Of a stretch of DNA of 64,000 nucleotides, positions 8,005 through 29,791 are shown one piece after another. The stretch comes from Tubulanus polymorphus (Eukaryota; Animalia; Nemertea): the NCBI RefSeq assembly GCF_964204645.1, contig NC_134036.1:10891859-10955858 (forward strand), in the 5' to 3' direction. Each line of letters opens with the position of its first letter. Within the stretch, counting starts at the first letter, position 1. The notes under the pieces are model-generated. The model made no database searches. It was not told the DNA's origin and was given only the letters and a program-made list of their open reading frames with translations. A program made the position numbers and the translations under genes.

Positions 8005-9120
8005 GTAATTTTCTTCTATATAAATGGAGGATGTAAATACAAGTTAAAAATGTTGATGAAATAAAATATTCTCCAAACATTGTGATAAATATGTTAGTAA
8101 ATCGAATATATCTTTTCATAATAAATCATGTCAACATCAGAAAAATGTAATTGATGACGAAAAAATAAATTTATATGAAAAAAAATAAAAAAATAGATTC
8201 TATAAAACTGAGTGGAATTAATTGTGATATTTGTGATGAAAACATTATGAAAAAAATTATAAGGTACATTTAGATTCTCTATAACATAAAATGAATATAA
8301 TTATAATTATTTTAGGTGAAGAATATTTTGGTGTTAAAAAACAAAGAGAAAATGTCGTTAAAACTGCTTATAAAGACCAATCTTACATGAAAAATATCAA
8401 TGACTACATCAATTCATTGTCTATAAAAGATGATATCGAATTAATTGAAACATTCAGAAGTAAAGTTGGCCCAGCTGCATTAATTATTAGATTTCATAAA
8501 GGAAGATTATCTTAGAATTTTGAAAAAATAGTTAGAAATAATGAAAAACATTGTGAGTTTTGTAACAGATGCTGAATATTCCAAACTTAGTTTTGGTCAA
8601 GTAACATTTACTAAATCTAATGAAAAAGTAACGCACCAGATTCAAATATGTTCTTATGAAGTTATTTTAAATGTTCAAATAGAAGATGTATTAAAGAAAT
8701 TATTTGCAGATTTTAGAACACGTATTGAAGAAAGATATTACGAAGGATCTGGTTAATCATTAGATGGAATATATTTTTTTTTTTGACTTACAAATTTATA
8801 ATAAAATTAGAAAAAATAACGTTAATGATTCAACATACACAACATAGAATTATATTGTTGCTTCATTATATATCAAATTACTGTTTTTAACACAAAAGCA
8901 GTAAAAAATGTTCAAAATGATGATATAAAATGTTTTTTATGGGCAATATTAAGTTATTGATATTCAACAAAAGTTGTTGAACATAGGTATAGATTATCTA
9001 ATTATAAGAAATATGAAAAAGAAACTAAAATATATAGTTATATTGAAATTAAATGTTTATGAGACGATAACATTAAGTGTTTGTAAAGGTGATAATATAC
9101 TACTACACTATACCCTAGAG
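8005..9120 (+). pseudogene. Remnant of a second, diverged Polinton pPolB 5' region
   Basis: YINSLSIKDDIELIETFRSKVGPAALIIRF parallels 10359 YIDSLEIKDTIEILETLRSKIGPAAIIFRF; EERYYEGSG; NVQNDDIKCFLWAI; start TATAAATG at 8024. Confidence 0.8.
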
Positions 9121-9968
9121 CCATTTATATTTTATATTAAGTTTTGAGAAAATTGCAATTTTAGGTTCTCATAATAAAGTCAAAACAGAAAAACCAATGG
9201 TTGGAACTAAAAACTGGAATATGACATGCGAGGATTCTAATGTAATTATTTATTTTTAACGTACTTTTCGTACAAAAATAGTTTAGAACCCACTTACTGT
9301 GTTTTAGCCTTGTAGGATCTTTCAAGCTTTCAAAGCAAAATCGCAGCATGTTATGGCGTGCTAGGCTTAAATACAGTAAGTAACTTTTTCCCAGGTTAAA
9401 AGACAGTATATTCCTCGGTTTCAGCTGAAAGGAATACCATTTTTTCCGGGTTCTAGGTGTGCCTTTAGCGGTTTGTGACATATTGTGTTAGCTCCAGTTA
9501 TGTTATTTTATGTCGTTTTGTCCGTCATTTTATTACTATACCATTATAGGGTCTCGTTTGATGTTCCTTCGCCTGAAGATACGTCAGATGATTCCCTCCC
9601 TATTTAGTGATGATCGTTGGAAGAGAGGTCCGTTTTTCCAGTATTTTACAGTAATTAGGAAATGGCGTTTTCATACCAGAGTACGAGAGTACGAGACACC
9701 ACTCATCACAGCTAGGCTCTAGTGAGAACGGACGATTGCTCTGTGATACACATATACAGTGAGTGCGCGTAACAACAACTTCGCGTGGATAGATCGATAC
9801 AGTGTGTCGCTACTGAGAACGGTTATTAACGCGTGTGCTATTACTGTAGTACAGTGATAGCGTGTCAACTGTGCTCGGATAAATAGATGCTGTGAGGCTT
9901 GGGTGAGAACGGTTAATAGCGTGCTTGTTATATACAAGGGGAAGTAAATCCCCACTCATCACCACAAG

Positions 9969-9989
9969 TAATTTTTTTCCTTATAAATG
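9969..9989 (+). promoter_or_regulatory. Representative T-run/spacer/TAAATG promoter-like motif (recurs at ~15 Polinton gene starts)
   Basis: TAATTTTTTTCCTTATAAATG; TAAAT-type starts also at 8024, 16336(-), 16406, 17087, 17690, 18132, 18583, 19986, 21463, 25473, 26601, 27509, 28050, 28793(-), 29712(-). Confidence 0.7.
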
Positions 9990-12900
9990 GGGGAGAATGA
10001 ACACCAGACAGAAAACAATAATGTTAATAAAAATCAATATTATTGTCCATATTGTAAAAAATACATCGATAAATCTAATAAATCTAAACATGAAAAATCT
10101 GCAAATCATAGAAAAAATGTTATAGATATTGAAACTCCAGAAAATTCCAATGAAAGAAAAGAACGATTAGATGATATGAATGTGGATGAAATAAAATGTG
10201 AAGTTTATAATGAATTTATAGTAAAAAGGAATTATAAAAGACATCTCGAATCACAAAAACACCATCAAAATTTGAGTAATAATGTTTTAGGAAAAGATAA
10301 ACCTCAACAAGTAAAAAAAACAACTTAAAAAACTAAATCCATTTCAAATAAACCTTACATGGAAAATGTTAGAAATTATATTGATTCACTAGAAATAAAA
10401 GATACAATTGAAATTTTAGAAACATTACGTAGTAAAATTGGTCCTGCAGCTATTATATTTAGATTTTTTAAATGTACAACAATAGAAGATTATAGTAAAT
10501 TTAATGAAATAATAGAAAAAATACTAGATTTGATAACAGATGTTGAATATCCAAAAATTAGTATCTCTGGGAAAGTAAGTTTTTTAAAGTCAGAAGAGAA
10601 AATGGATTATAATATTCGAACACTCTCTGAAGAAATAATTTCAAAAACGCAAATAAAAGAGAAGTTAGAAAAAATATTTAATGAATTTAAACGTCATATT
10701 GAAGAGTTCTGGTTTAACATTGAATGGAATTATATTTTTAGATTTAAATGTTTATAATACAAAAAGGAATAAAACATCAAAAAGTAAAACAATGTTTAAA
10801 AATGATTCAAGCTTTACAACAGAAAAGGATAAAAAAGCATCATCTTATATTAAATTACCATTTACAACAAAAGCAGTAATAAATGTTCAAAATGAAGATA
10901 ATAAATGTTTTCTATGGTCAATTATTAGTTGCTTACACCCAACAGAAGATATCACGCATAGTTTTAGAATAACAAATTACCGGAAATATGAAACATTATA
11001 TAAAATTGATCTATATCCAATAACTATAAAAATGATACCCAAAATAGAAAAAAATTAATAATTTAAAAATATATGTATTCGAATTAATGCAATAACCAAA
11101 GACAAAAGGTGAAAATATTAAGGATTATACATTGGAAGCTTTATATTTAACAGAATATTATGATGATGAAAATGCTATAGATTTGTTATATTACAAAAAA
11201 GATGAAAATGAACATTATATGTGGTTAAAACAAATTGATTTATTCTTTAGCACAGAAAGTGATTTTAACAGTCATAAAATTTATCTATGTAGAAAATTTT
11301 TATCTAAATTTAGAACTGAGAATGCTTTACTAAAACATAAAGAATTATGTGGTAATAAAGATTTTTGTAAATTTATAATGCCAACAGAAAAAGATCATAA
11401 ATTGAAATTTACTAATCATAAATTTAAGAATATTGTTCCATTTGTAATTTATGGGGATTTTGAATCGTTCAATAAAGAATTAACTGATCAAGATAGAAAA
11501 GAAATATATAACAAAAAGCAATTATTAAAATCAATGGATAAAGGAAATGAATTAAATGAAGACACAACACAAGATCCGCCAATTATAAACACAATTAAAA
11601 AAGTTCATGAAAGAGCTGCTGCTTATGGAATTTATATGAAATCAAATTATCCTGAATTATATGAAAGTCAATATATTTCTTTTAGAGGTGAAGATGTAGT
11701 TAATGATTTTTGTGACAAAATGATTGAATTTGAAAGTGATTTTGCAAAATTATTAAACAAAAATAAAAGAATAGTTATGACAAAAGAAGATGAAATTGAT
11801 TTTAATTATGCAACTCATTGTTGTTGTTGTGAAAAAACGTTTTCATTCATTTGATAAAAAAGTAAGATATCATGATCATTTAAATTCAAAATATCGTGGA
11901 GCTGCTCATGAAGATTGTAATTTACAAGCTAAGAAAGTTAATTTCGTACCAATATTATTTCATAATTTATCAGGCTATGATACCCATCTATTTATAAAAC
12001 AATTATCGGGAAAATTGGGCGCAATTAATCAAGAAATAGAAGAATATAATGCTATGAATGGTGTAAATGTAAGAACTATTAGCTAAAACATCCGAAAATT
12101 ATATTTCATTTCAATTTGGTTGCATTAGTTTTTTAGATTCTTATAGATTTCTTGCAAGTTCATAAGATAATTTCTCAAAAAGTTTAGTTGATAATGATTT
12201 TATAATAACTCGATATTATTATCCAAATGAACAAGATTTTAAATTATTGAGATATAAAGGTGCAATTCCTTATTCATTTTATAAAACACACAATGATTTT
12301 AATGTAACAGAATTATTAAAGGATCAATTTTATGATCAATTAAAAGAGGAGTATGTGAAAGATGAAGTGTTTAATAGAACATTAAATATTTGGAACCATT
12401 TTAAGATGAAAAATCATGGTGAATTAGTTGATTTATACTTAAAATCAGATGTTATGATATTGGCTGATATATTTGAAAAATTTAGAGAAGTTAATTTGAA
12501 TCATTTTAATGTTGATCCTTGTTATTGCTACTCTAGTCCTGGTTTAACCTGGCAATGTGGTTTAAAATACACAAATGTAGAATTAGATTTATTAAAAGAA
12601 CCAGACATGGTTTTATTATTTGAAAAATGAATTAGAGGTGGAATTAGTGGTGTTATGGGAGATAGGTATTTTAAAGCAAATGATGAATATAAATTATTAT
12701 ATATTGACACCAATAATTTATATGGTTGGGCAATGATGCAACCTCAACCATACAAAAATTTTATATTGACAGGAGTTGAAAATGATGATAAAACTGATTG
12801 GGAAAGCGCAATTGCGAGTTTAAAAGATGAAGCACCAATTGGTTATTTCTTTGTAGTTGATTTAGAATATCCTGAAAATATAAAGTTTAAAACAAGAAAC

Positions 12901-15023
12901 TTACCTTATTGCCCAGAACATTTAACCGTAGATGATAGTTATTTAAGTGAATACCAGAAGAAAATAAAACCGAAAGATTATGTTTTTACAGAAAAATTAA
13001 TACTTACTCAAAATAATAAATACAATTATATTGTTCATTATAGAATGTTAAAATTTTATCTTAAACAAGGAATGAAATTAAAGAAAGTACATAGATATAT
13101 TGAATTTTTAATCAATCGAAGTGGTTAGAAAAATATATAGATTTCAATACTCAACGGAGAACCATATCAAAAACAGATTTTGAAAAAGATTTCTTCAAAT
13201 TAATGAATAATAGTTTTTATGGTAAAACATGCGAAAATATTAGAAATAGAAATGATATTGAATTAGTAAATAATTCTGAACGATTAAGACATTTACAATT
13301 AAGTCCTAGACATTTAGGAAATAAAAGATTTGAAGATTAGTTAACAGCAGTTAAATTAAAAAGAACGTCAATGAAATTTAATAAAGCTATATTAATTGGT
13401 TCAACTGTTTTAGAAGTATCAAAATTATTAATGTATGATTTTTATTATAATGTTTTACAACCACTTTTTGGGGAAAAGCATATTGAAATATTATATTTTG
13501 ATTCTGTAACAGCTGACACCCCAATATTATTAAAATGTAATGATAAAATATCGATAAGAAGAATTTCAGAAATAATTCCCAAACAAAATGAATGTTATAT
13601 TTCATATGGTGAAAAAGAATTAATACAAATAAATGGTTTAATGGATGTTTGGACAAGAAATGGATTGAAAAAATTAAAGAATATTATTAGGCATAAAACA
13701 AATAAGAAAATCTATAGAGTTAGAACTAAATTAGGGTTTGTAGATGTTACAGAAGATCATAGTTTAACTAAACGAATTGGCGATGAAATAAAACCAACTG
13801 ATATAAACATTGGAGATGAATTATTACATAAAAGATTTTTCCAAAGAATGAATCATATGTCATTCGACGAAATTATTGATAATATTCATAATATAGAACC
13901 TGAAACATTAGAAGAAAAATAATATTTTATTAAAGGATTTTTCATGGGTGATGGTTCAGCAGGTGCGTATAATTATGTTTGGGGTAATAAATATTGTTGG
14001 TATTTATGCAATCAAGACTTAAAATTTTTAGAAAGAATTAAGAAATTCTGTGAAGAAGTTTATTCACATAAAACATTTAGAATCATGGATGTTATGAAAT
14101 CATCAGCAGTTTATAGAATACTTGTAAATAATCCTAAAGATTTTGCTATAAAATATAATGATGAATTCTATATTCATGCAATAGTGAAAAGTAATACTTC
14201 AACAAAAGAAAAGATAGTTCCAGATTATGTATTAAATGCAAAAAATTATTTAAGAAAATGGATCTTCATTGGATTCTACGCAGCAGATGGTGCTAAAAAA
14301 TATACAAAGGATAAAAAGATAACCTTTGCACAGATAGGAAAAGTTGCTTTATCGGGGTTAAATATATTATGTAATTCATTAGGCTTCAATATGAATATTG
14401 GATTGATTAAATCTAAAGGAAATTGCTTTAATTTAAGCCACACAGAAAAAGATTTAACGGAAGAAGTTAAAGATTTATTTGAAATATATAACCCAACAGA
14501 TTATGTTTATGATTTATCAACCGAAGATGGCACATTCACCTGTGGATTTCCATTAATTTGCTTCATTACTGATGCGTACATACTAAAAATCAAGACAAAT
14601 GACATAACAAAAGACATAAAAACATTAAAACATCATTTTGATTTTAGCAATTATCCCAAAGATCATGAACTATTTAGCAATGATAATAAAAAAATTCCTG
14701 GTAAATTTAATAATGAATTAGGGGGTGATGAAATGATTGAATTTGTTGGGATAAGAGGTAAAATGTATAGTTACAGAACAAAAGATCATGAAGCTACAAA
14801 GTTAAAAGGAATAACAAAGCATGTGGTTGATAAACATATAGAATTTCAAGATTATATAAAGTGTTTATATAACTCAATTGTAATGAAACACAAAATGAAT
14901 TGTTTAAGATCAGAAGATCACGAGATGTACATTAATGAAGTTGAAAAAACTAGTTTGAATCCATTTGATGATAAAAGGCATATTTTAGATGATGGTATAA
15001 AAACATTACCTTATGGTTATTAA
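9987..15023 (+). pseudogene. Protein-primed DNA polymerase B (N-terminal Zn fingers, OTU-like protease, HNH/EndoVII insert, intein); multiple stops and frameshifts
   Basis: CPYC..H..H; NVQNEDNKCFLWSII + HYMW; exo I YGDFES; HDHLNSKYRGAAHEDCN; FHNLSGYDTH; YLKSDV; IRGG; YIDTNNLYGWAM; KLMNNSFYGK; YFD|TD; KMYS; FDDKR. Confidence 0.93.
13503..14567 (+). other. Intein with LAGLIDADG homing endonuclease in pPolB motif C (355 codons, one internal stop)
   Basis: Starts SVTADTPILL; block B VTEDHSL; GFFMGDGS and GFYAADG; ends YVYDLSTEDGTF..LICFI|TD; removal gives LYFD-TDAY. Confidence 0.9.
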
Positions 15024-15160
15024 AATGGATCAATATCATCAAACTCGAAATCACTATTGGCTTCTTCATTTTCATTTAATTGTTCAGGTTCTTCTTCCAT
15101 TCCATTTTTCTCATTCAAATAAAGTTCTATCTTGTTCCACATTTCATCTCGCTCTCTTTG

Positions 15161-16336
15161 TTACTTTTTGTTTGTTAATTCATCAAATGGAATTATAATA
15201 TCTATGTTTAAATAATTTACAATCTTATTTAAAAAGAATTCATGATTAATTGAATCTGTTATTCTATTTTCCAAATGATATATTAATATTTGTTTGAATG
15301 TTTTTTTTATATTTTCCATATCTTCTTCTGTTAATTTAGGTTTTTCATAATAATCGTTAAATAATAAATATAAATACATTTTCTTATGTTTTGTGTTAAA
15401 TGTTGACGGAATAATTATTTTTATAATATCTTTTTTAGTTATTTCACCATTTCTATTTTCTATTATTTTCATTTTTTCAAGCCATTGCATATATTCTGGT
15501 GTATGATCTTCTATAGAAAATGTTTCATTTTCAATTTCATCTAGATAATTTATTTTTGGATCTATGAGAAAATTTCTAGTTTTTTCTTCACTCCATAAAT
15601 TCTTTTGCCATCCACATTCATTACAAAATAACACAGTACCTTCTTGTCTTAAGGTTGCATAACTACATTGTGGACATTTTTGTTTATAATTTATTGGTAA
15701 TAGATCTTCATTAAGCTCTTCGTATTTTCTTACGTTTTCTTTATGTTTTATTGTTCTATTATGTAGATTTGAATTACTTGTTGTAATAATCAATTTACAA
15801 TATTTACAATAATATGTTTTTCTTGTTAATTCATTATATTGTTTTTCTAACTTTTCAACTGTTTCTTTATTATCTGGTAACGTTTTCTCATATTTTATTT
15901 TTTCTAATAAATTATTTTTTCTTTCATTGAATTCAGTTTCAAATTTATTAGGAATTTTATCTATATGTGCTTTACGAAATTGATGATTCTCCCAATCTTC
16001 TATATTTTCAGGGCTATATTTTATTCGACAAGGCTCACAGAAATGATCTTTTATATTATCCTTGTCATAGAATAAGAAAGGTGTTTTCCAAATAACTTCA
16101 GGTTCTACTTCAACAGAATTACTATTACTTTCGTTACTATCAACATTAGCCGTTGCGCCATTAATTTTACACTTCTCTGAATGTTTTTTAACATAATTTC
16201 TTGAGAATAATTTATTACATTTTGGACAGTTTAGTTTAGGGGGTTTATAATTTTCATCATGTTTTTTCATATGTCGAGCCATATTACTTTTTCTTAGAAG
16301 TTCACCACAAATTTCACATGCTATCTTCTCATCCAT
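15161..16336 (-). CDS. Polinton multi-zinc-finger protein (391 aa, intact)
   Basis: CEIC..RHMKKH, CPKC..KHSEKC, CEPC..H..H, CKYC..H..H, CPQC/CNEC; TAAATG start. Confidence 0.75.
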   Translation of the reverse strand: MDEKIACEICGELLRKSNMARHMKKHDENYKPPKLNCPKCNKLFSRNYVKKHSEKCKINGATANVDSNESNSNSVEVEPEVIWKTPFLFYDKDNIKDHFCEPCRIKYSPENIEDWENHQFRKAHIDKIPNKFETEFNERKNNLLEKIKYEKTLPDNKETVEKLEKQYNELTRKTYYCKYCKLIITTSNSNLHNRTIKHKENVRKYEELNEDLLPINYKQKCPQCSYATLRQEGTVLFCNECGWQKNLWSEEKTRNFLIDPKINYLDEIENETFSIEDHTPEYMQWLEKMKIIENRNGEITKKDIIKIIIPSTFNTKHKKMYLYLLFNDYYEKPKLTEEDMENIKKTFKQILIYHLENRITDSINHEFFLNKIVNYLNIDIIIPFDELTNKK

Positions 16337-16405
16337 TTATTAAGGAAAAATTTTATTGAAATTAATTTTTAGTGATGAGCGGTAATTTTTTTTATGTTAT
16401 AAATA

Positions 16406-17070
16406 ATGGTAGAATTAAAAGAATACAGAATATTTGTTGATTCAAGAAGACTTACAAATTATAAATCACATAATTTATTAGTTCAATTAGATAGAGAATT
16501 TAAGAATTGTGTAGATTTAAAATTAGTTAATATAAGTTTATGTAACTCTTTTTACTATATATCAGATAAAACTGATGAACATAGAAGCCTTTTTATTTTT
16601 GATTAGGATAAAAAGTGAGAGCTCTAATAAAATTAAAATAAAGTTTGATAATGATTATTTTAAACTTTATCAACATACAAAAGAAAGATATCTTTACATG
16701 GTAAAAAAAACCTATAGCTAAACTGTTAGGAATTCCTCCAGATAAAGATATTAGAGAAAACATATACGGTAGATCAAACTTAATACCTTTTACACATTTT
16801 TATATTTATTGCAATTTAATTGACCCAACAAAAACATTTGAAGCAACTAAAGATATAACTTGTAATTCTTGTATATTAAACATTTTACCATTAAAGAATG
16901 TTAAACAATTTGGAACGCAAATAAATTATAATTTAGCTGAATGTGATTTTAAACCTTGCATTCCTAAATTTAATAATTTTAAATTAGAAATAAGAAATCA
17001 TAATGGTTATTTAATTGATTTGAATAACTTTCCTGTGATATATGAATTAATTATAAGATGTAAAGAGTAA
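16406..17070 (+). pseudogene. Minor capsid (penton-like) protein, disrupted
   Basis: IFVDSRR..LVQLDREFKNCVDLKLVNISLCNSFY at N-term; FYIYCNLI..LEIRNHNGYLIDLNNFPVIYELII at C-term in another frame. Confidence 0.7.
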
Positions 17071-17086
17071 TTTTTTCATTATATAA

Positions 17087-17665
17087 ATGAATATAACTGT
17101 TGGACCGAGTATATGTTTTGGGTTTGATTTCAAACGTGAGAAAGAAATGAAATTTAACGTTAATGATGTAATCACACATATCAAAAATATTGCATTTTCT
17201 AATGAAACAACATTTGAGTATGAAACAACAATAGATAAAGAAACTTTAAATGTAGAAAAGATTACTAATTTAATAAGAGAATCTTTAAGATTTTATGAAT
17301 TAGATGAAGATTTTATCATCGATGATATTAAAAAAATAATAATTGAAATATATACAAATGAAACTAGTAATGAAATAAATGTTGAAATAATCATAAATAA
17401 GTTAACTAAATATTTTGATGATAGTAATTTTTTTGATAAATCAATGAGTGATAATAAGTGGATAATAACTGGATTATATAATGGCGCATTACTATCACTT
17501 GGAACTGTTGGTTATTCACTGGTATTAAAAAAAGTATTTAAAATGGGAAGTGTTAATGTTGATAGATTTGATATAAATGATATTTTAGAAATAACGTTAG
17601 CAGTTACTTTATCTAATTTAACTATTGATTATTTGGAAAAACAAAAATATATTCCTCCCATATAA
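17087..17665 (+). CDS. Polinton hypothetical protein with C-terminal hydrophobic helices
   Basis: 192-aa ORF, TAAATG start. Confidence 0.6.
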   Translation: MNITVGPSICFGFDFKREKEMKFNVNDVITHIKNIAFSNETTFEYETTIDKETLNVEKITNLIRESLRFYELDEDFIIDDIKKIIIEIYTNETSNEINVEIIINKLTKYFDDSNFFDKSMSDNKWIITGLYNGALLSLGTVGYSLVLKKVFKMGSVNVDRFDINDILEITLAVTLSNLTIDYLEKQKYIPPI

Positions 17666-17689
17666 ATGCATAATTTTTTTGCTAAATAA

Positions 17690-18112
17690 ATGGCTTCTGC
17701 AATTATAACTATTATAGGATCGGCAAATGTCAACGCTTTTGCATTTGCTGGTGGTGGTTATTTATTTAAACATATTGATAAAAATGGATCATTAACAGAA
17801 CAAAAAAGACATAACTTAGCATTAGAGAAATATGATAAAGCTGCAGAAGAATACAGAGAAAAGAGACAAAACTATATGGATAACATCAATAAAGAATTAA
17901 TTGATCAGAATATTTCACATAGAGATTTTCTATCAGTTGATGATGCAATGAGTATATATAACGCAGTAACCAATAAAGAAAAATTACATCTATACGAACC
18001 TAAATTATCAGATTATTATACCCCAAGTAAAGAACAACAGAAATATGAAATAATATGGATTTTAGGTGGAACAGTTATTGCTATATTTGTAGCATATAAA
18101 TTTACTTATTAG
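17690..18112 (+). CDS. Polinton putative membrane protein (hydrophobic N-term, coiled coil, C-terminal TM)
   Basis: 140 aa; AFAFAGGGYLF, EQKRHNLALEK, IIWILGGTVIAIFVAY; TAAATG start. Confidence 0.65.
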   Translation: MASAIITIIGSANVNAFAFAGGGYLFKHIDKNGSLTEQKRHNLALEKYDKAAEEYREKRQNYMDNINKELIDQNISHRDFLSVDDAMSIYNAVTNKEKLHLYEPKLSDYYTPSKEQQKYEIIWILGGTVIAIFVAYKFTY

Positions 18113-18131
18113 TAATTTTTTTTCTAAATAA

Positions 18132-18566
18132 ATGGAAGATAAAGTTGATAATATTGATATTATTACTCATGATATAAATAAAACTAAATTAAAAACATAT
18201 TTAGAAAAACAAATATTAGAATTTGAAAATGACTTAAAGATAAAAAAGAAAAAATATTTAAAAAGTAAAATTATATATTATTTAACTATAAGTGGTTCGG
18301 TTACAATTAGTTCTGTAATAACATTTTTAGCAATATTCAGCCCATTAACACTTTTAGCTATATCAATTGGCGTATTAGGATTAAGTTCAAGTGTTTTAAC
18401 TGGTATAAGTTCAAAATTAAATATAAAAAGTAATAAAGAAAAATTTAAAACTAATATAAAAGAAATTAATAAATTAAAGAACACACTAGATTATATAATA
18501 AGTTTAAATGGCCATATAACAGTTGAAGAACAAGATAAATTATTAAAAGAATTAATAAATTATTAA
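18132..18566 (+). CDS. Polinton two-TM hairpin protein flanked by coiled coils
   Basis: 144 aa, central hydrophobic hairpin; TAAATG start. Confidence 0.6.
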   Translation: MEDKVDNIDIITHDINKTKLKTYLEKQILEFENDLKIKKKKYLKSKIIYYLTISGSVTISSVITFLAIFSPLTLLAISIGVLGLSSSVLTGISSKLNIKSNKEKFKTNIKEINKLKNTLDYIISLNGHITVEEQDKLLKELINY

Positions 18567-18582
18567 TTTTTTAATTATATAA

Positions 18583-19969
18583 ATGGTAGATAGTTTTCCA
18601 AAAGCTTTCCAATATAATAAATCAATTAAATATAATATTCCAGCAATAGATTTTAATAAAGATATTACATATAGAAATGAAGTTTTAGATTCATTAACTA
18701 ATTTAGAAATTTATGTTACTGAAACTAATAATTTCAATCCAAAGATGGAAAATATTTTTCATGTATATTTAATTGATTTTAAAAAATTGAAAGATGAAAA
18801 ACAATGGTTATTAAAATCTAATATGAAGTATTGGCAGAACCAATTAAATTTAGCTGTTTATTGTGCAACAACAGGTTGTGGAATTAGTTGGAATAATCAT
18901 TTGAATAATTCTAAATATAAATTAATTCAAAGTTTATTTAGATTTCATACATACTTTCAAATAAGATTAATATTAAATGAATTAGAGTGTCCTTTACCAG
19001 GATTTACCAGGTATTTTAAAGAATTAGATAATAATATTAATTTGTCAAAGTTTTATAAAATTTGTAATGAATATAATATAGATATAAATAATTCTGATTT
19101 TAGAACGAAAATTGGAACAATAAGATCACTTCCTTGCCCTAAAAAGATTGCAGAATATTGTGCACTTCCCATACCATCTAATAGTTTTTATAATATCTAT
19201 AATAATAAATTAGTATGGTAAAATAGAAACTAAGGATTTAGAAACATTAAATTTCAATAAATTACCGACATTTTATGATAATGTAACAAGAAAACAATAA
19301 TGGTTGGGTTTATTTCATTTTAGAAAATAGTGAAGGTTTTACTAAATCAAGTATAGAAAGAATAAATCAATCTATTAGAACTTATTTGATATGTATTTTA
19401 GGTGCGCAAGTTGAAACAGGATCCACAATAATTGGAAATTTAAATACATCATTTGATACACAAAAACAATTTAAAGTATTATTTGAAGATCCATTCATAA
19501 TGATAAAAATAGATCGATTCCAGAAAACATTGTAAGATATCAAAATTATTTAGATAAATCACATATTAGATTAAATCATTGTATCGGCCCTAATCTATTT
19601 ATTATTTCTAATGATTTAGTATTAAAGATGGGAAACATAATTGGTTACAATAATCTAATTAAAACAGCAACAATAAATAATTCATTTGGATTAAATGATA
19701 TAAATAAAAAGATAATTACTGCTCCAAAATTAATGGAAGGTGAAAAAAATAAAAAACATATTCAATCAACAGAAACTAAAACTAAGAATATTAAATTGGA
19801 TAATGATTCCAAAATAAAAGATTACAATACTACAGAAAATATAAAAACTGATAATATTCAACATGATATAATTAAACTAAATGATGATAATAAATCCCAT
19901 GAAAATACTAAATTAGCTTTAACTTGTATAGGAATTGTAATCGGAGGAATATTATATTTTAAATTTTAA
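18583..19969 (+). pseudogene. Polinton hypothetical protein with C-terminal TM anchor, frameshifted
   Basis: WQNQLNLAVYCATTGCGISW; FRFHTYFQIR; continues via frameshifts into 19628..19969 (LALTCIGIVIGGILYF). Confidence 0.6.
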
Positions 19970-19985
19970 TTTTTTTATTATATAA

Positions 19986-21428
19986 ATGGATGTAGAAGGT
20001 GGAGAAGATATTGGAATGGATCCTTTTGATGAACCTGGTATAAGTGATGAACAACCACCTGATTTTGATGAAAGAAGTTTTAATGATGGTAATGAGCACG
20101 GATATAATAATAATTTAAATATGCCTGATTATATTAAAAATGCAGAATCACCATTAAATCCTGAAAATTTAGACCCAGGTTTAGTAAAAGAAGATTTAGA
20201 TAATTTAAACAAAATACCTAAATTAGAAGATTTAATTGAAAAATCTAAACTTAACATAAATGATGAAGACGTTGGACTTTTAGCATATCAATTAAAATTT
20301 TTAGATAATGGTAAATGTTATTATCGTTTGAAAGGTGATTATTATATTGATATCACTTCTAAAAATAATAAAAAAATATTAGCGGAATCAACTTTGAAAA
20401 GTTTAAAACCAGATAAAATTAAAAGAATAAGTAATAGTAATGAAATAACTGATGTTACACAAAAAGAAATAGATGATAATATAGACGTATTTAAACAAAG
20501 AATTAATGAATTATTTGAAATAATCAAAAAGAAATCAGAAACAGAAACAACTTCTGAACAGAATATAACTTCCAAAACTAGTAAACTTAAATCAAATAAA
20601 GTTTCAATTGAAAAACTTTTACCGAATGGATTACTTGATGCAACAGATCAAGAATTAGAAGATTTAGATATATTTTCTGATGAAGCAATTAGAGAAATTA
20701 TTAGTATAAGAAATGAAGCTGATAAAATTGCACATAATAAAAGTATAAGAGATCAAAAAATTATGTATTTGGAAAAAGAATTAACTAATGCAAATAAAGA
20801 AATAGAAAAACTAAAGTCTGATTTAGATCATCGAGTAATTGATTAAATCGAATATAGGCAAAAAGAATTACGATTAGAAAAAGAAATTAATAATTTAAAA
20901 GATAATTTAGAAGTACAGAAAGAAGAAATTAAATTATTGTTAAAATCATATGATTATAATATTAATAGATTAAAAGATGTTTTTAAAAGATATCTAATAA
21001 AACAAGATTCTAAAATATCATTGAAAGATAGAATAACATTATTATTTAAATTTGAAGGAATAACAATTCTTTCAATTCTAACAGCTGTAACTATGTTATT
21101 TACAACAATTGGTTTAGCAATATCAAATGCTTTAAAATCTACTCCTACTCCAAATAAACCAGATAAATCCCCAGATAATAATTCTATACAAGATAAAGTT
21201 AAAGATGGTTTAAAGAAATTAGCAAAATATTTATGGGAACTATCTTAAAAATCCGCTGCAGCATTGCCAGGAATCATTGCATCAATTGTTGGTTTTATAT
21301 TGAAATCTGCAGGAAACATTATTAACTTCGCTGCTGAACATATTATTTTATTTCTAATTACAGTTGTAGGTGCTATTATTTTTGGGTTAGTGAATATGAT
21401 ATCAAAAAGATATCAAGAAAAAAAATAA
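19986..21428 (+). pseudogene. Polinton coiled-coil/membrane protein, two in-frame stops (copy 1)
   Basis: One frame through stops at 20844 and 21246; hydrophobic C-term KSAAALPGIIASIVGFIL... Confidence 0.7.
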
Positions 21429-21462
21429 TAAAAAATAAATAACTAATTTTTTTGTTAAATAA

Positions 21463-21873
21463 ATGAGTGGGAGTTATATAAGTCCTTCTAAGAATTCTAG
21501 AATATCTAATGCTATTAAAGCAGAAAGATCACATCATATAATTACGCATAACCCTTCTAATATTAATCCTGATGAAACTTTATATGTTAGAATCCCTAGA
21601 TTAACACAAAATACTTTTTACGTTCCAAATAGTATTTATTTATCAGCCGATATAAAAGTAATCGGTAATAATAATAATTATGTTGTTGATAATGTTGGAA
21701 GATATTTGATTGAAAAATTAACTATAAAGATTGGTCCAGAAACAGTTTTCTCATTAGATGATTATAATTTATTTATGCATTATAAAGATTTATGGTTAAC
21801 TAAAGAAAATAGAAATAATATGATATTTCAGGGTATTCAATCGGAAAACCATAATAAATTAAGATCGGGAAGT
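21463..21873 (+). pseudogene. Major capsid protein 5' fragment truncated at the duplication junction
   Basis: Identical to the 24195 ORF up to KLRSGS. Confidence 0.85.
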
Positions 21874-22717
21874 AAAAGATTGCAGAATATTGTGCACTTC
21901 CCATACCATCTAATAGTTTTAATAATATCTATAATAATAAATTAGTATGGTAAAATAGAAACTAAGGATTTAGAAACATTAAATTTCAATAAATTACCGA
22001 CATTTTATGATAATGTAACAAGAAAACAATAATGGTTGGGTTTATTTCATTTTAGAAAATAGTGAAGGTTTTACTAAATCAAGTATAGAAAGAATAAATC
22101 AATCTATTAGAACTTATTTGATATGTATTTTAGGTGCGCAAGTTGAAACAGGATCCACAATAATTGGAAATTTAAATACATCATTTGATACACAAAAACA
22201 ATTTAAAGTATTATTTGAAGATCCATTCATAATGATAAAAATAGATCGATTCCAGAAAACATTGTAAGATATCAAAATTATTTAGATAAATCACATATTA
22301 GATTAAATCATTGTATCGGCCCTAATCTATTTATTATTTCTAATGATTTAGTATTAAAGATGGGAAACATAATTGGTTACAATAATCTAATTAAAACAGC
22401 AACAATAAATAATTCATTTGGATTAAATGATATAAATAAAAAGATAATTACTGCTCCAAAATTAATGGAAGGTGAAAAAAATAAAAAACATATTCAATCA
22501 ACAGAAACTAAAACTAAGAATATTAAATTGGATAATGATTCCAAAATAAAAGATTACAATACTACAGAAAATATAAAAACTGATAATATTCAACATGATA
22601 TAATTAAACTAAATGATGATAATAAATCCCATGAAAATACTAAATTAGCTTTAACTTGTATAGGAATTGTAATCGGAGGAATATTATATTTTAAATTTTA
22701 ATTTTTTTATTATATAA

Positions 22718-24160
22718 ATGGATGTAGAAGGTGGAGAAGATATTGGAATGGATCCTTTTGATGAACCTGGTATAAGTGATGAACAACCACCTGATTTTGA
22801 TGAAAGAAGTTTTAATGATGGTAATGAGCACGGATATAATAATAATTTAAATATGCCTGATTATATTAAAAATGCAGAATCACCATTAAATCCTGAAAAT
22901 TTAGACCCAGGTTTAGTAAAAGAAGATTTAGATAATTTAAACAAAATACCTAAATTAGAAGATTTAATTGAAAAATCTAAACTTAACATAAATGATGAAG
23001 ACGTTGGACTTTTAGCATATCAATTAAAATTTTTAGATAATGGTAAATGTTATTATCGTTTGAAAGGTGATTATTATATTGATATCACTTCTAAAAATAA
23101 TAAAAAAATATTAGCGGAATCAACTTTGAAAAGTTTAAAACCAGATAAAATTAAAAGAATAAGTAATAGTAATGAAATAACTGATGTTACACAAAAAGAA
23201 ATAGATGATAATATAGACGTATTTAAACAAAGAATTAATGAATTATTTGAAATAATCAAAAAGAAATCAGAAACAGAAACAACTTCTGAACAGAATATAA
23301 CTTCCAAAACTAGTAAACTTAAATCAAATAAAGTTTCAATTGAAAAACTTTTACCGAATGGATTACTTGATGCAACAGATCAAGAATTAGAAGATTTAGA
23401 TATATTTTCTGATGAAGCAATTAGAGAAATTATTAGTATAAGAAATGAAGCTGATAAAATTGCACATAATAAAAGTATAAGAGATCAAAAAATTATGTAT
23501 TTGGAAAAAGAATTAACTAATGCAAATAAAGAAATAGAAAAACTAAAGTCTGATTTAGATCATCGAGTAATTGATTAAATCGAATATAGGCAAAAAGAAT
23601 TACGATTAGAAAAAGAAATTAATAATTTAAAAGATAATTTAGAAGTACAGAAAGAAGAAATTAAATTATTGTTAAAATCATATGATTATAATATTAATAG
23701 ATTAAAAGATGTTTTTAAAAGATATCTAATAAAACAAGATTCTAAAATATCATTGAAAGATAGAATAACATTATTATTTAAATTTGAAGGAATAACAATT
23801 CTTTCAATTCTAACAGCTGTAACTATGTTATTTACAACAATTGGTTTAGCAATATCAAATGCTTTAAAATCTACTCCTACTCCAAATAAACCAGATAAAT
23901 CCCCAGATAATAATTCTATACAAGATAAAGTTAAAGATGGTTTAAAGAAATTAGCAAAATATTTATGGGAACTATCTTAAAAATCCGCTGCAGCATTGCC
24001 AGGAATCATTGCATCAATTGTTGGTTTTATATTGAAATCTGCAGGAAACATTATTAACTTCGCTGCTGAACATATTATTTTATTTCTAATTACAGTTGTA
24101 GGTGCTATTATTTTTGGGTTAGTGAATATGATATCAAAAAGATATCAAGAAAAAAAATAA
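22718..24160 (+). pseudogene. Polinton coiled-coil/membrane protein (copy 2, same stops)
   Basis: Duplicate of 19986-21428. Confidence 0.7.
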
Positions 24161-24194
24161 TGAAAAATAAATAACTAATTTTTTTGTTAAATAA

Positions 24195-25442
24195 ATGAGT
24201 GGGAGTTATATAAGTCCTTCTAAGAATTCTAGAATATCTAATGCTATTAAAGCAGAAAGATCACATCATATAATTACGCATAACCCTTCTAATATTAATC
24301 CTGATGAAACTTTATATGTTAGAATCCCTAGATTAACACAAAATACTTTTTACGTTCCAAATAGTATTTATTTATCAGCCGATATAAAAGTAATCGGTAA
24401 TAATAATAATTATGTTGTTGATAATGTTGGAAGATATTTGATTGAAAAATTAACTATAAAGATTGGTCCAGAAACAGTTTTCTCATTAGATGATTATAAT
24501 TTATTTATGCATTATAAAGATTTATGGTTAACTAAAGAAAATAGAAATAATATGATATTTCAGGGTATTCAATCGGAAAACCATAATAAATTAAGATCGG
24601 GAAGTAATGACGCAATAGTAACTCGTGCCACAGATAATTTGATTAAAAAGATTTATGGAAGCAAATATAAAATCCCATTAAACTTTGAATTGATAAATAA
24701 CAATGCACCTTCATATAAATACGCAATTCAAGAAGATATTATATTTGAGATAACATTTGCTCCTGTTAATGAAATTGTATTATCTAGCGTTGTTAAAGAT
24801 ATGGGTTATAAATTATCGAATATATGTTTAGAATATAACACAGTCACCAATGAAAATATTGCTAGCACAATTCAAACTCAATACAATCAAGGATTTTCAT
24901 TATTATATGATTATATTGATAAATTTAAAACTGTAACTATTAATGCAAATGATGAAATAATTAATGAGAATATTAACTTCCCAAGAAGATCTATTAAAGG
25001 TATATTAATATTCTTTACCATTGCAACATATACTAATGGTGCAATAAATGTTGATAATTATTATAATCCTGAAATAACAAAAGTAGAAATAACTATCGAA
25101 GGAATAGCAAATAAAATATTTTGTCAAGGAATGAGAATGATTGATCAATGGCCAGAAATTAGAAAACATTTTATGAATGAAAAAGTAAAATCATTTGAAA
25201 ATTGTAATATTAATCAAATTGATTATTATACCGGCAATAAATATGCATTATGGTTAGATTTTAGAACAACAGAGGATAATTCATTACATGGTTCTGGAAA
25301 AAAACTACAGAATACTAAAGATGGAATACAATTATTAATGAAAAAGAAAAGAGGAGACAAAAATTTTAAAATGCACATTTATATTATATCTGATGCACAA
25401 TTAAATATTGTAAATTCACAATTAGATAGTATTCAATATTAG
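24195..25442 (+). CDS. Major capsid protein (double jelly-roll, putative), intact 415 aa
   Basis: Size, beta-rich pattern (LSNICLEYNTV, INFPRRSIKGILIFF, ALWLDFRT) and position next to INT/ATPase. Confidence 0.78.
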   Translation: MSGSYISPSKNSRISNAIKAERSHHIITHNPSNINPDETLYVRIPRLTQNTFYVPNSIYLSADIKVIGNNNNYVVDNVGRYLIEKLTIKIGPETVFSLDDYNLFMHYKDLWLTKENRNNMIFQGIQSENHNKLRSGSNDAIVTRATDNLIKKIYGSKYKIPLNFELINNNAPSYKYAIQEDIIFEITFAPVNEIVLSSVVKDMGYKLSNICLEYNTVTNENIASTIQTQYNQGFSLLYDYIDKFKTVTINANDEIINENINFPRRSIKGILIFFTIATYTNGAINVDNYYNPEITKVEITIEGIANKIFCQGMRMIDQWPEIRKHFMNEKVKSFENCNINQIDYYTGNKYALWLDFRTTEDNSLHGSGKKLQNTKDGIQLLMKKKRGDKNFKMHIYIISDAQLNIVNSQLDSIQY

Positions 25443-25472
25443 AAATATAAAGTTTAAATTAAGGATATATAA

Positions 25473-26600
25473 ATGGGTGGTAAAAAAACTCCTAATACTA
25501 AAGAACAATATTTAAGAAATTTATATTACAACCCTGAGAGTTCGGTTGCTTATTCTTCTACCAAAAATATATGGAGTAAAGTAAAACAAGATAAATTAGA
25601 TAAGATAATCCCACAAAATTTAGTTAAATATAAAGATATAAATGAATTTATGTTAGAACAACCAACATATACAACACATAAAAAAATTGTTAGAAAATAT
25701 AAAACTCGTAAAACTATGGTAAGTTATGTAGATCAACAGTGGCAAGGAGATTTAATTGATATGAAAAATGTTAAGAAAGATAATGATGATTATTGGTGGT
25801 TATTGAATATAATTGATATTTTTAGTCGTTATGTATGGAGTTTCCCACTTTATAGAAAAGATGCTGTACAAACATCAAATGTTTTAAGAAAATTTCTTTC
25901 CGATGATAAAGTAAAACCAGAAAAAATACAATTTGATGATGGAAAAGAGTTTGATAATTCATCTGTTCATGAACTCTTAGATAATCATAATATTAAATAT
26001 TTTTCAACAAAATCGGATAAAAAAGCTGCAGTTGTTGAACGATTTAATAGAACATTAAGAACAAGAATGTGGAAATATTTTACAGCAAATAATACTTTTA
26101 AATGGATTGATGTTTTACCCAAATTGATAGAAGGATATAATAATTCTTATCATTCTTCTATTGGAATGAAACCTATTGATGCTAGAAAACCTGAAAATGC
26201 TGAAATTGTTTGGAATAATTTATATGGAGCATTTCTTGTAGATGATTTTGGTGAACCTAAATTTAAAGTTGGTCAAAATGTTAGAATTTCTAAGTATAAA
26301 AAGATATTTAACAAAGGATACGATCGAAATTTTACTAGAGAAATATATAAAATAAAAAAGGTAATAACAACAAAACCATATGTCTATAAATTAGAAGATT
26401 TAGATGGTGAAGAAGTTGATGGCTACTTTTATGAAGAAGAATTAAGTTTAACTACTGAAAATCTAGAACAAGAATATAAAATTGAAAAAGTATTAAAAAC
26501 AAAAACTATTAAAAGAAAAAAATATTCTTTAGTAAAATGGGTTGGATGGCCAGATAAATTCAATGAATGGATATTATCAAGTAAAATTAAAAATATATAA
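25473..26600 (+). CDS. Retroviral-like (rve) integrase with C-terminal chromodomain, intact 375 aa
   Basis: QWQGDLIDM, IIDIFSRY, IQFDDGKEF, KAAVVERFNRTL, FKVGQNVRI, YKIEKVL..LVKWVGWPDKFNEWI. Confidence 0.95.
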   Translation: MGGKKTPNTKEQYLRNLYYNPESSVAYSSTKNIWSKVKQDKLDKIIPQNLVKYKDINEFMLEQPTYTTHKKIVRKYKTRKTMVSYVDQQWQGDLIDMKNVKKDNDDYWWLLNIIDIFSRYVWSFPLYRKDAVQTSNVLRKFLSDDKVKPEKIQFDDGKEFDNSSVHELLDNHNIKYFSTKSDKKAAVVERFNRTLRTRMWKYFTANNTFKWIDVLPKLIEGYNNSYHSSIGMKPIDARKPENAEIVWNNLYGAFLVDDFGEPKFKVGQNVRISKYKKIFNKGYDRNFTREIYKIKKVITTKPYVYKLEDLDGEEVDGYFYEEELSLTTENLEQEYKIEKVLKTKTIKRKKYSLVKWVGWPDKFNEWILSSKIKNI

Positions 26601-27204
26601 ATGAATAAGGAATTATTTATATTTGAGCCTCATAATATGTTAATTTCTGGCGTAACAAATTGTGGAAAAACTTGTTTTATATTAAATTTTTTAGAAACTG
26701 TTTATGAAAACTATTTTGATAATATAGTATTATTTTGCCCAACATATGAATTTAATCAAACTTATGATAGAAATATTACTAGAAATAATAAATTTATTAT
26801 ATTAGATCCTAAAACAGTAAAAGAAAATTTAGATAATTGTATAAAAATAGCAATTGATATTTATAAAGGATCAAATACATTATTCATTATAGATGATTGT
26901 GCTAATTTACATGATTCAAAAGTTAGAGAAAGTGAGTTATGTTATTTAGCTTTTTCTGGCAGACATTTTGGGATAACAACTTGGGTTTTAAATCAAAAAT
27001 ATAATTCAATTGTTAAAGATTTTAGGGAGAAGATTTCTAGTTTTATTCTACAATAAAGATAGAAAATCGATGAAAAATGCACTTGAGGAAAATGATATTA
27101 TTCCACATGATTTACATAATGAATATATGGATAAGTTGAAATATATTAAAAGATCAAAATTACTAATTAGATTACAACACCCATTTAAATATGAATTTAT
27201 TTAA
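26601..27204 (+). pseudogene. A32/FtsK-like packaging ATPase, frameshift near 27030
   Basis: Walker A GVTNCGKT, Walker B FIIDD, SGRHFGIT..LNQ; C-term in 27010..27204 frame. Confidence 0.9.
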
Positions 27205-27205
27205 A

Positions 27206-27492
27206 TTCAACTAGCTTGTTAATCTAATTGAATTCTAGTTACATTCTAGTTGAATTCTAGTTATTGGTAGTTGTAACAAAAATCAACTAGATGTAACAAT
27301 ATTATAACTAGCTTGTTAATCTAGTTTAATTCTAGTTACATTCTAGTTGAATTCTAGTTATTAGTAGTTGGAACAAAAATCAACTAGATTTAAGAAGAAA
27401 TAAACAAAAACAACAATATTTCAACTAGCTTGTTAATCTAGTTGAATTCTAGTTACATTCTAGTTGAATTCTAGTTGCAACATCACAACTAA
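27206..27492. repeat. Intergenic repeat array: three ~100-bp units built of 11-bp subrepeats
   Basis: AACTAGCTTGTTAATCTA at ~27209, 27306, 27423; subrepeats TTCTAGTTGAA / TTCTAGTTACA; inverted CAACTAG/CTAGTTG. Confidence 0.9.
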
Positions 27493-27508
27493 TTTATTTG
27501 TTATATAA

Positions 27509-28117
27509 ATCGGAGGTGAAAAGAAAATAAAATCTAAAAATGGTGATGTTCCAATTGAAAAAACTTTAGATGATTTAGGAATAACAGAAAACAAATTAAT
27601 TCCAGATGATGGTGCTTTAAATAATGTTACAACAAATAATAATTATGAATATTATCTTTATTATTGTAAACATCAATTAGAAATATTAATAGCATCTGGA
27701 AAATGTAAAAATTTTGTCGGTAAAAATTTAACTTATAATGAATTAGATACAATGAAATCAGATGAAATTATTAGATTATTTAAGATTTATGAAGCCGCGA
27801 GAACAGCTAGAATTAATGACGCGATATCAGAAAATGTAGTAAAAGGTTATAGTAAATTATGTAATTATATACTACCAATTCAAGATGAAAATAGATTATA
27901 TTCCGATTTAAAAAATGACTATTTAGTTATGACTGAATTAAATAAATGGATTGGATATTTATCATTTCAATTAGGTGGATTTATGACATTATTATCAACT
28001 GGAGTTATAACATTTTCAAATATTGAAAGTAAAAATATTTCCATAATAAATGAACAAGGTGGAAGAAGTGAAGGAATTAACTGTGAAGAAAAAACCGAGA
28101 TCACAGAATCAAATTGA
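27509..28117 (+). pseudogene. Polinton hypothetical protein with start codon apparently mutated (ATC)
   Basis: Frame open from TATAA-ATC GGA GGT (27509) into ORF 27752..28117. Confidence 0.65.
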
Positions 28118-28406
28118 ATGGTCTCGGCAATTAGGAATTAAATCACAAGAATATAAAAAAGCTGTAAAAGAAAAAAGAAGTGATAAAAATTGTCAAAATA
28201 TTGTTATTTCTACTCCTTCTGATAATAGAATATTTGATAAATGTCTATATTTTACGGTTGGATTTGTAATTGTATTCATTTTGATTGGGTGTAATTGGTA
28301 TAAGAAATCAAATAAAATTCATGATATTAATAATTCTGAAACAACTGCTATCAAAAATGAAAATAATTATGAAATTCCAAAATTGACAATAAAAAAAATG
28401 GATTAA
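28050..28406 (+). CDS. Polinton small single-TM protein
   Basis: 118 aa, TM LYFTVGFVIVFILIG; TTTTCCATAATAAATG start. Confidence 0.6.
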   Translation: MNKVEEVKELTVKKKPRSQNQIEWSRQLGIKSQEYKKAVKEKRSDKNCQNIVISTPSDNRIFDKCLYFTVGFVIVFILIGCNWYKKSNKIHDINNSETTAIKNENNYEIPKLTIKKMD

Positions 28407-29791
28407 TATTTTAGAAAAAAAGCAAAAAAAAATAATTTTTTTTAAGTTAATTGAATATCTCACTACTTTTGTCTATCTATGCGGAGCAATTAAATTGTCC
28501 AGATAAGTCATTTCGGATTCTAGATATTCATTATGTTTATTAATTTATTTTGTTTTTACTTGAATATTGTATTACAGTCGTTTCTTATTATTAGTTTTTT
28601 CTTAAATTGAAAGATTGGTGTGATGCTAAAATGAATATTTGAATTTGTTAATCAATTAACATAGTGATTAAAAATTATATCATAATTAAGTTAAAAATCC
28701 ATAATTCATTTATCAGTTTTCATTCTTATATTCTTTTCATTCGGAATAATTTATAATTTCAAATTTCACATATTTTTTTAGCACCAACAACATTTACTTA
28801 GGTGTTTTAGCTAAGTATATAAGGCAATTCATTCCAACACTGGAGTAGCTCTGGCCAGCAGAGGCATTTTGAAAATGCACCTTCGTCCACTCTCCGGGTT
28901 TCTCCTTCGGTTTCGAATTTCGATATTGGTAGAAATTACATTAGGCGCCTTTAATATAATATGATTTCTGCCAATCATTGAAGGAGATCCCGGTTGACGT
29001 GGGTCGCGGGGGTGTAAGTAGAAATGACGGGGGATAAGCGTCCCGTGGCGCCTTTCAATAATTGGATGCTTATCCCCTGAAAACTCTGTAGGTCGAGGAT
29101 AGGGCAATTTTGCTAAAACTCACCTTAAAAACACTGAAATATTCCTTTTAATCACGAGAGAGAGAATGTATCCTGTGTGTGTTGTATGTACTGCGTGCTT
29201 ATTATATAACTGCTAGCTATCCAATATGACAACAACGTTGTGCAACACCTGTTTCATTGATCAATATTCAAATGAAGCACTCTCTTATAATAACATGTAA
29301 CAGATGTTTGACTGTATGATTGTAGTTGTTCGTAAAACGACTGAGGTCATTTTGGATTCTAGATATTCATTATTTTTATTTTGTATTTAATCAACAATTT
29401 CTAAATCATGATGACCGTCTTCATTTTTCCCATGATAGATTATTTTAAATCCTTCTAAATCTTTTAATTCCTCTGTACTCAATGAAACCCATTAATCAGG
29501 AAAAAATACTTTAAATTCTCGCGATGTACTAACATTACAGTAGCTTAAATTTGCTGATACTTTCTCTCCATATTTAGTTTTTATCTTTTCTAATTTCAAT
29601 ATTTTATGTTCAATTTCTTTTGTAACATCAACTAACATTTTTATTTCAAATTGTTTTTTGCTGGTTTAATTCTGTTATTTATTGTTACTAAGAATGATTT
29701 TCTATCTCCCATTTATTAGGGGAAAAAATTACTTGTGGTGATGAGTGGTGTCTCGACCTTCGACCTCTGATCTGAAAGCCTACTTTTCCAA

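Follow-up and report, generated by a model that had tools for sequence, protein, structure and literature searches.

A TAAATG start signal resembling large-virus late promoters in one clade of protease-less Polinton-like elements

Within a 64,000-bp stretch of the genome of the nemertean Tubulanus polymorphus (NC_134036.1, positions 10,891,859–10,955,858; hereafter the window), positions 9692–29755 hold an integrated Polinton-like element of ~20 kb, nearly all of whose genes begin at the word TAAATG. This start signal is a trait of one clade of such elements and not of base composition. Judging from its layout, the protease-less clade very probably carries promoters of the late type found in large DNA viruses, and a co-infecting large DNA virus is likely to supply the RNA polymerase that reads its genes, which would make intact members virophage-like parasites. 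Animal Polintons could be autonomous nuclear viruses, transposons or parasites of larger viruses. A sharp promoter signature confined to one clade separates them by sequence: one branch appears adapted to a large-virus polymerase, and its sisters with the same genes appear adapted to the host.

A shared start signal in the window

The element is an AT-rich block (~23% GC versus 35–46% in the flanks) bounded by short inverted repeats. It encodes a protein-primed DNA polymerase B (pPolB), an rve integrase with a chromodomain, an A32-type packaging ATPase, a major capsid protein (MCP) with a double jelly roll, a likely penton and about eight smaller genes. The original prediction for this locus, of an intronless element read by a pox-like helper, listed a series of T-run/TAAATG sites, and these are present where it placed them, save that the run at 28050 has three Ts rather than four and that 28793 (minus strand), whose frame is short and without a homolog, is probably no gene start. 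T-run length and spacer are T7/5 at 9987, T5/6 at 16336 (minus strand), T8/6 at 16406 (where the initiator reads TAAATAATG), T6/7 at 17087, T7/6 at 17690, T8/5 at 18132, T6/7 at 18583, T7/6 at both 19986 and the MCP, and T6/7 at 29712 (minus strand). A tandem duplication of 2732 bp accounts for a second copy of both the 19986 and the MCP site. Further sites missed by the prediction are a degenerate one at 17444, a T-rich tract with TAAAT at ~27509, and one at 8024 in an older, more decayed remnant of a related pPolB start (8024–9040; 65% DNA identity, read depth near single copy). The genes align to those of relatives without introns, as predicted, and the ATPase is, again as predicted, the only exact stop–start junction.

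For start statistics, one copy of the duplication was removed, leaving 13 starts, which were picked with the motif known and most of which were later matched to the N-termini of orthologs in the relative L003. TAA directly preceded the ATG at 12/13 starts compared with 35/680 other ATGs (p = 3 × 10−14), and the full motif (T5 or longer, N4–8, TAAATG) was found at 9/13 starts versus 1/680 (p = 7 × 10−17). Among TAAATG sites alone, a T-run preceded 9/12 starts and 2/35 others (p = 8 × 10−6). Enrichment over AT-matched background was also borne out by 20,000 shuffles of each start's own 40-nt upstream sequence: the shuffled sets contained 0.04 full motifs on average and never more than 2, compared with the 9 observed. 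Runs of T5–T8 with a 5–7-nt spacer stood at 10/13 starts, and the position of the tract was fixed, with T at −14 and A at −4 in 13/13.

Because the window starts were chosen with the motif in view, evidential weight lies with the blind tests, namely the relatives described below and a weight matrix trained on 51 of their starts with the window excluded. The matrix placed 12 of the 13 window starts in the top 24 of 693 ATGs, with the thirteenth, 16406, at rank 195. It also picked 17444, which is a separate gene in L003. The word CTCATCAC, found upstream of three starts, was considered as a further element and rejected, as it is not preserved at starts in relatives.

Spacers between tandem genes in the window measure 16–34 nt and that between the divergent pair 69 nt, leaving little room for host-type promoters and leaders. 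The motif also stands where there is no upstream gene, in each of the terminal repeats and between the divergent pair, and, at 28050, inside an upstream coding frame.

The signal among related elements

Of 170 metagenomic loci that encode a related capsid, the best 80 were taken for comparison. In a quick IQ-TREE analysis of capsids of at least 300 aa (61 rows), the window fell in a 15-row clade (SH-aLRT 98), 14 of whose capsid genes start with TAAATG. Two partial loci, L021 and L071, were added to the clade by identity; the close relatives number 16 and have a GC content of 20–44%. Over the capsid family as a whole, TAAATG starts were found at 13/16 loci within the clade and 0/63 outside it. 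Nine gene families are common to clade and outgroup, and taking the first ATG of each frame mechanically, TAAATG marked 38/48 clade starts, 0/51 starts from 17 AT-rich outgroup loci and 2/262 from 46 GC-rich loci. The signal is shared by close relatives and not by distant ones. The background share of TAAATG among ATGs was 6.3%, 3.7% and 1.0%, respectively. With near-duplicates dropped, the counts were 33/38 in the clade and 0/34 in the AT-rich outgroup. Ten clade starts are exceptions: several of these ATGs lie within a frame that is broken or partial, and at three the TAAAT is shifted upstream by one or two bases. The signal is retained at 40–44% GC (L007, L008).

Other properties of the start also set the clade apart. 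A purine at −3 was present at 9/48 clade starts versus 45/51 in the AT-rich outgroup, with T at this position in 39/48 clade starts; the initiator had exactly three As at 38/48 clade starts, and a longer run at none. A T5 run stood at 17/48 clade starts, the others having A/T tracts, often A-then-T rather than a pure T-run. AT bias, gene packing, a poly(A) signal, Kozak context and a trans-splice acceptor were each rejected as the source of the motif.

It is very improbable that the motif marks the 3′ end of the preceding gene, as AATAAA or TTTTTNT, or that it merely results from stops and starts being tightly packed in AT-rich DNA. AATAAA does lie within 24/60 clade sites, TTTTTNT fits 6/13 window sites, and at 17087, 18583 and 19986 the upstream gene ends in the TAA that precedes the T-tract. 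However, AATAAA is missing from the other 36/60, the same motif occupies both terminal repeats and divergent pairs that lack an upstream gene, and the stop–start junction accounts for 1/60 clade TAAATG starts, with TAAATG at 0/51 starts in the equally packed AT-rich outgroup. The divergent and terminal sites largely refute the 3′-end explanation. The original prediction had read many of the T-runs as the poxvirus early terminator TTTTTNT. This did not hold up: besides the modest 6/13 and the scarcity of T5 runs in the clade, any T7 run fits the word, and its depletion in coding strands is common to clade and outgroup.

Other AT-rich relatives (L055, L059, L058, L015, L062) start their genes with TATATA-ATG or ATATAAT-ATG and are possibly tuned to a different helper. 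Separately, in the protein clusters P0044 and P0361, capsids and pentons of the clade are attributed to Bartonella assemblies; the contigs are very short and probably represent contamination from the host, which suggests that the clade also occurs in land animals.

Probable transcription by a helper virus

In the vaccinia late promoter, a T-containing core is followed after 5–7 bp by TAAAT(G/A) overlapping the start site (PMC5294985), and slippage on the three template Ts at TAAAT yields a poly(A) leader (PMC6211774). By analogy with poxvirus biology, late factors of the helper would bind the A/T core, transcription would begin within the three As of TAAAT, and slippage would add a poly(A) leader at the 5′ end, which would provide the context for translation. 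The clade alone could afford T at −3, because the A leader would replace the unfavourable context. Polymerase, integrase and capsid genes would be activated together in the helper's factory, and new particles would re-integrate by means of the rve integrase. A late-type signal on the polymerase and integrase genes fits a parasite awaiting its helper's late phase. Precedents are the Polinton-like viruses (PLVs) found in entomopoxvirus occlusion bodies (PMC11296320) and integrated virophages, whose reactivation requires helper-like late promoters (10.1101/2025.10.09.676808). The pPolB intein, inserted where large-virus PolBs carry theirs, and the deoxynucleoside kinase carried by L003 were also counted in favour. 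The kinase is one of several clade accessory genes that each start with TAAATG, the others being of HNH/endonuclease VII type (L003:10340–10981; L001:5568–6083; L008:3289–4023; L021:2278–2898).

A helper polymerase is invoked because the element shows no RNA polymerase of its own: RNA polymerase, capping and transcription-factor families had no match among the window or clade proteins scanned. It is extremely improbable that the clade is instead autonomous, or that a resident cytoplasmic element lends it a polymerase. The yeast pGKL elements do offer such a model, using a pPolB, a TAAAN initiator and poly(A) leaders (PMC6211774). Against it stand the missing families, in a scan of partial clade contigs with several open reading frames unassigned, and a 20-kb genome filled with known genes that has no room for large subunits.

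We also considered it unlikely that the clade adopted its signal from the host, either as an RNA polymerase II core element or as a context for translation from very short leaders, the element being an ordinary nuclear self-synthesising transposon. The high copy number in the host fits nuclear transposition, 24/60 clade sites read TATAAATG, a TATA-like word, and the analysis found no helper. However, a TATA box abutting the ATG would put the transcription start inside the gene, and the prevalence of T at −3 breaks the purine rule that the outgroup keeps. A trans-splice site is contradicted by the lack of an AG acceptor in the motif. The signal also persists over loci of 20–44% GC whose capsids are only 50–56% identical to that of the window and which probably come from different hosts.

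Alternatively, the promoters could be relics of a helper-dependent ancestor, present copies having spread by read-through or cryptic host promoters with no helper today. The heavy decay of the locus, the older remnant at 8024–9040 with the same signal (65% identity to the pPolB start) and read identities spanning <90% to >99% are in keeping with this. It is nonetheless quite unlikely, as the signal is near-invariant at orthologous starts over deep clade branches with open frames, implying continuing selection.

Several observations weigh against transcription by a helper. The integrase, ATPase and 28050 starts have no T5 run. The T-tract is not specific to the clade: T-A(3–8)-ATG occurs at 18/51 AT-rich outgroup starts, some with a T-tract (e.g. 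L026, L040), and these could be plain A-rich context or a related promoter. The AATAAA contrast between clade and outgroup is weak, with an observed/expected ratio in coding strands of 0.97 in the clade (3.6 per kb) and 0.82 in the AT-rich outgroup (z = −2.0). About 100 germline copies would require a helper-dependent particle to have access to the germline. No helper sequence was identified, in work that included no dedicated search of the host genome for helper genes, and the L003 kinase, the penton relatives and the intein tree point to no helper lineage. The intein lies in the pPolB, and the inteins of pPolBs form their own clade, with a Pol-delta-like enzyme as nearest row (FastTree 92), in a family also present in phage-type and Chloropicon polymerases.

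For this reason the intein singles out no cytoplasmic virus. Its insertion site is one used by large-virus family-B polymerases. Outgroup pPolBs lack it, aligning up to 13505 and resuming at 14568. The closest relatives are in five other pPolB proteins (44–61% identity), followed by same-site family-B polymerases (27–40%), whose hosts comprise one named as viral-metagenome, others that are phage-like, and Chloropicon Pol delta. The intein records exchange with other family-B polymerases, which are probably viral, but is no proof of a cytoplasmic stage. Further pPolBs carry the same intein family; some of them belong to clusters that number >100 members and lie on long contigs (P0122, P0124). 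An intein in a Polinton pPolB had no matching description in the literature searched, judged by titles and the beginnings of abstracts.

Which large virus would serve as helper was approached by scanning gene starts in 120 viral loci. The two top-ranked records, of ~10 kb, belong to 206- and 212-kb genomes with MSV199, DUF3627 and KilA-N genes, which from gene content and length we take to be invertebrate iridoviruses. With search-selected starts excluded, these had TAAATG at 7/17 starts compared with 36/689 ATGs. Large-virus contigs related to an intein-bearing polymerase had 8/23, 6/25, 5/20 and 1/14, and two further contigs 3/22 and 1/16; L202, L203 and L205 are among the loci with enrichment. 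The original prediction of a poxvirus-late architecture stands insofar as a Polinton-type element has the vaccinia-late layout. Its poxvirus specificity does not: iridovirus-like and other large-virus DNA shows an excess of TAAATG starts too, and the helper need not be pox-like. The tight T-run/spacer/TAAATG form is closest to the description of poxviruses, whose side of the comparison is taken from papers rather than scored DNA. We tentatively put a pox-like helper first, an iridovirus-like or related one is a weaker possibility, and another family is improbable.

Published accounts of iridovirus promoters are sparse, cite AAAAT motifs and leave the late-message polymerase open; their available text makes no mention of TAAATG starts (PMC5923455). 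In the iridovirus-like records L209, L210 and L085, TAAATG stands at ~40% of starts, often following a T-tract. On a 19-kb viral contig with a DUF5872 gene (L150:1060–5245), four or five genes, one with a search-selected start, begin with a T/A-tract and ATAAATG, much like the element. Motif scans of 6/64 parts of IMG/VR revealed no Polinton of this clade and no poxvirus recognised among the top-ranked loci inspected.

The signature offers a way to predict unrecognised large viruses of invertebrates. In its broadest form, the argument would make the whole invertebrate-germline Polinton-like clade endogenous virophages of undescribed pox-like viruses, their copies acting as an infection-triggered, heritable antiviral defence, which we consider doubtful. 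If true, animals would have a candidate for the virophage-type defence that only protists have so far been shown to possess, a counterpart of the endogenous mavirus of Cafeteria.

The element, its copies and known systems

Features of the element are as follows.

9692..9992 (+): left terminal inverted repeat, holding the pPolB T7/TAAATG signal and start codon
9987..15023 (+): pPolB with N-terminal zinc finger; PF03175 pieces, aligns with P0121/P0122 and outgroup pPolBs; several stops and frameshifts
13503..14567 (+): LAGLIDADG intein in pPolB motif C (YxD|S...|TD); internal stop, degenerate C-terminus
15161..16336 (−): 391-aa zinc-finger protein; start T5/6-nt/TAAATG
16337..16405 (no strand): 69-nt divergent spacer with two back-to-back T-tract/TAAAT signals; neither strand has an upstream gene
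16406..17070 (+): likely penton (minor capsid) gene, broken; ortholog L003:565–1329; start T8/6-nt/TAAATAATG
17087..17665 (+): two small genes fused in one frame, separate in L003; starts 17087 (T6/7/TAAATG) and 17444 (T7 tract, degenerate initiator)
17690..18112 (+): conserved 140-aa gene (family 5); T7/6/TAAATG
18132..18566 (+): 144-aa two-helix membrane protein; T8/5/TAAATG; weak SLATT-like match below cut-off
18583..19969 (+): conserved ~440-aa gene (family 7), broken; T6/7/TAAATG
19190..24607 (+): 2732-bp tandem duplication, doubling the gene that starts at 19986 (again at 22718) and the 5′ part of the MCP (21463)
22718..24160 (+): conserved ~480-aa coiled-coil/membrane gene (family 4), broken; first copy 19986; T7/6/TAAATG
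24195..25442 (+): MCP with a double jelly roll; start T7/6/TAAATG; frame open
25473..26600 (+): rve integrase with chromodomain, open frame; PF00665, E-value 4.5e-11; TAAATG without T-run
26601..27204 (+): A32-type packaging ATPase, frameshifted; PF04665, E-value 3.7e-12; TAAATG shared with the integrase stop codon
27209..27513 (no strand): three palindrome-rich tandem repeats of ~97–117 bp; L003 has an unrelated repeat at the same position
27509..28117 (+): conserved ~205-aa gene; start codon missing at this locus, where the T-rich tract and TAAAT are retained
28050..28406 (+): 118-aa gene overlapping the preceding one; T3/6/TAAATG within the upstream coding frame
29390..29712 (−): broken ~115-aa gene; ortholog L003:125–469; start T6/7/TAAATG, which falls within the right repeat
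29708..29755 (−): right terminal inverted repeat, adjoining a Pao retroelement fragment

The gene order is nearly all colinear with L003, whose frames are open. The capsid model (pLDDT 87.7) gave Foldseek matches to the PBCV-1, SGIV and mavirus capsids (E-values 1e-16 to 3e-11), with mavirus ranked below the large-virus capsids. Assignment of 16406..17070 as a likely penton derives from the L003 ortholog, which resembles DUF5901-type proteins in a structure comparison with the Atlas (TM score 0.74). The model of the ~115-aa gene folded poorly (pLDDT 51), and a structure search with it gave no match. The small membrane protein at 18132–18566 is conserved and is a possible pore-forming defence effector. 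Tandem repeats of ~100–120 bp, unrelated in sequence, lie between the ATPase and the next gene in both the window and L003 (L003:9085–9409) and are a possible origin or packaging site. No match to an Ulp1/adenain cysteine protease was found in the window or the clade proteins scanned, the window genes being accounted for by L003 and pPolB matches, and the element is therefore classed as Polinton-like, not as a canonical Polinton. Its absence is common to outgroup relatives without the TAAATG motif, so protease loss is no marker of helper use.

The copy in the window is decayed, the pPolB, penton, ATPase and at least four other genes having stops or frameshifts; the original prediction that it would be activated on helper infection thus fails for this copy. 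The 2732-bp duplication (19190–21875 = 21922–24607, one mismatch) is either a recent event or an assembly artefact. The terminal inverted repeats are unusually short, with 41-nt arms (9952–9992/29708–29748, 85% identity) reaching outward beyond an insertion of ~253 bp that, with an 11-bp duplication, splits the left repeat; reads skip 9698–9952, with 11 letters fitting either side. GC-richer insertions inside the element lie at 9710–9962 and ~28800–29350. A 6-bp target-site duplication is a hallmark of Polintons/Mavericks. None was present at this locus, where the flanks differ at every candidate end compared and which may be rearranged. The Pao fragment at the right end (PF05380) spans 30191–31006 and by itself points to an animal as probable host. 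Farther out, decayed transposase-like and recombinase-like frames were seen by eye at 31891–33438 and 52057–55967, without Pfam matches, and a duplicated segment lies at 31981 and 55215.

Raw DNA reads under the same species label, from another individual, cover the left half of the element at a depth of ~170–1000x, compared with 1–3x on the flank at 8388–9175, with identities of <90% to >99%. These indicate on the order of a hundred diverged copies, a rough figure to which free viral DNA could contribute. Depth at 17450–18630 is 2–4x that of the remaining left half, suggesting many short non-autonomous derivatives. IMG/VR yielded no capsid or pPolB relatives, phage records and PDB sequences gave none, and an Rfam search returned 0 matches.

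In the open literature searched, covering titles, openings of abstracts and selected passages, no promoter signature was described for integrated animal-type Polintons; the word 'promoter' has 0 occurrences in the available text of PMC8502044, PMC10748475 and PMC11131425. With Polintons/Mavericks (Polintoviricetes; adintoviruses, PMC8502044; definition, PMC11161782) the element shares its pPolB, chromodomain integrase, A32 ATPase, double-jelly-roll capsid, terminal inverted repeats and multicopy integration. It differs in that no cysteine protease or, at this locus, target-site duplication was found, and in its very short repeats containing promoter and start codon, its pPolB intein and its TAAATG starts.

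Entomopoxvirus-associated PLVs (Barth et al. 2024, PMC11296320) are likewise small capsid-encoding elements proposed as poxvirus parasites in an animal. Unlike the present element, all four encode a protease, an rve integrase is reported for none, and the evidence is co-sequencing with occlusion bodies. The words motif, TAAAT, transcription and upstream have 0 occurrences in the available text, and two short capsid words of the present family had 0 matches in the supplement. The vaccinia late promoter (PMC5294985, PMC4542343) has the same layout, the same 5–7-nt spacing and an initiator overlapping the start codon, whereas the signal here is a predicted promoter and stands at nearly all genes, including polymerase and integrase. 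The yeast cytoplasmic linear plasmids pGKL1/2 share a pPolB and a TAAA-type initiator, but pGKL2 encodes an RNA polymerase and a capping enzyme, lacks both capsid and integrase, and is not an integrated element (PMC6211774).

Mavirus, the Cafeteria EMALEs and Tetraselmis PLVs are also integrated pPolB/rve elements, with promoters that match the helper's late promoter and are silent until infection (10.1101/2025.10.09.676808; 10.64898/2026.07.28.741278). They differ in their protist hosts, their promoter motif, and a known helper with reactivation shown, while the present element is known from its sequence. The maturation protease of virophages (Maveriviricetes) was not found in it, and the likeness is one of predicted lifestyle, not of membership. 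Helper-dependent PLVs are already known in protists and suspected with entomopoxviruses.

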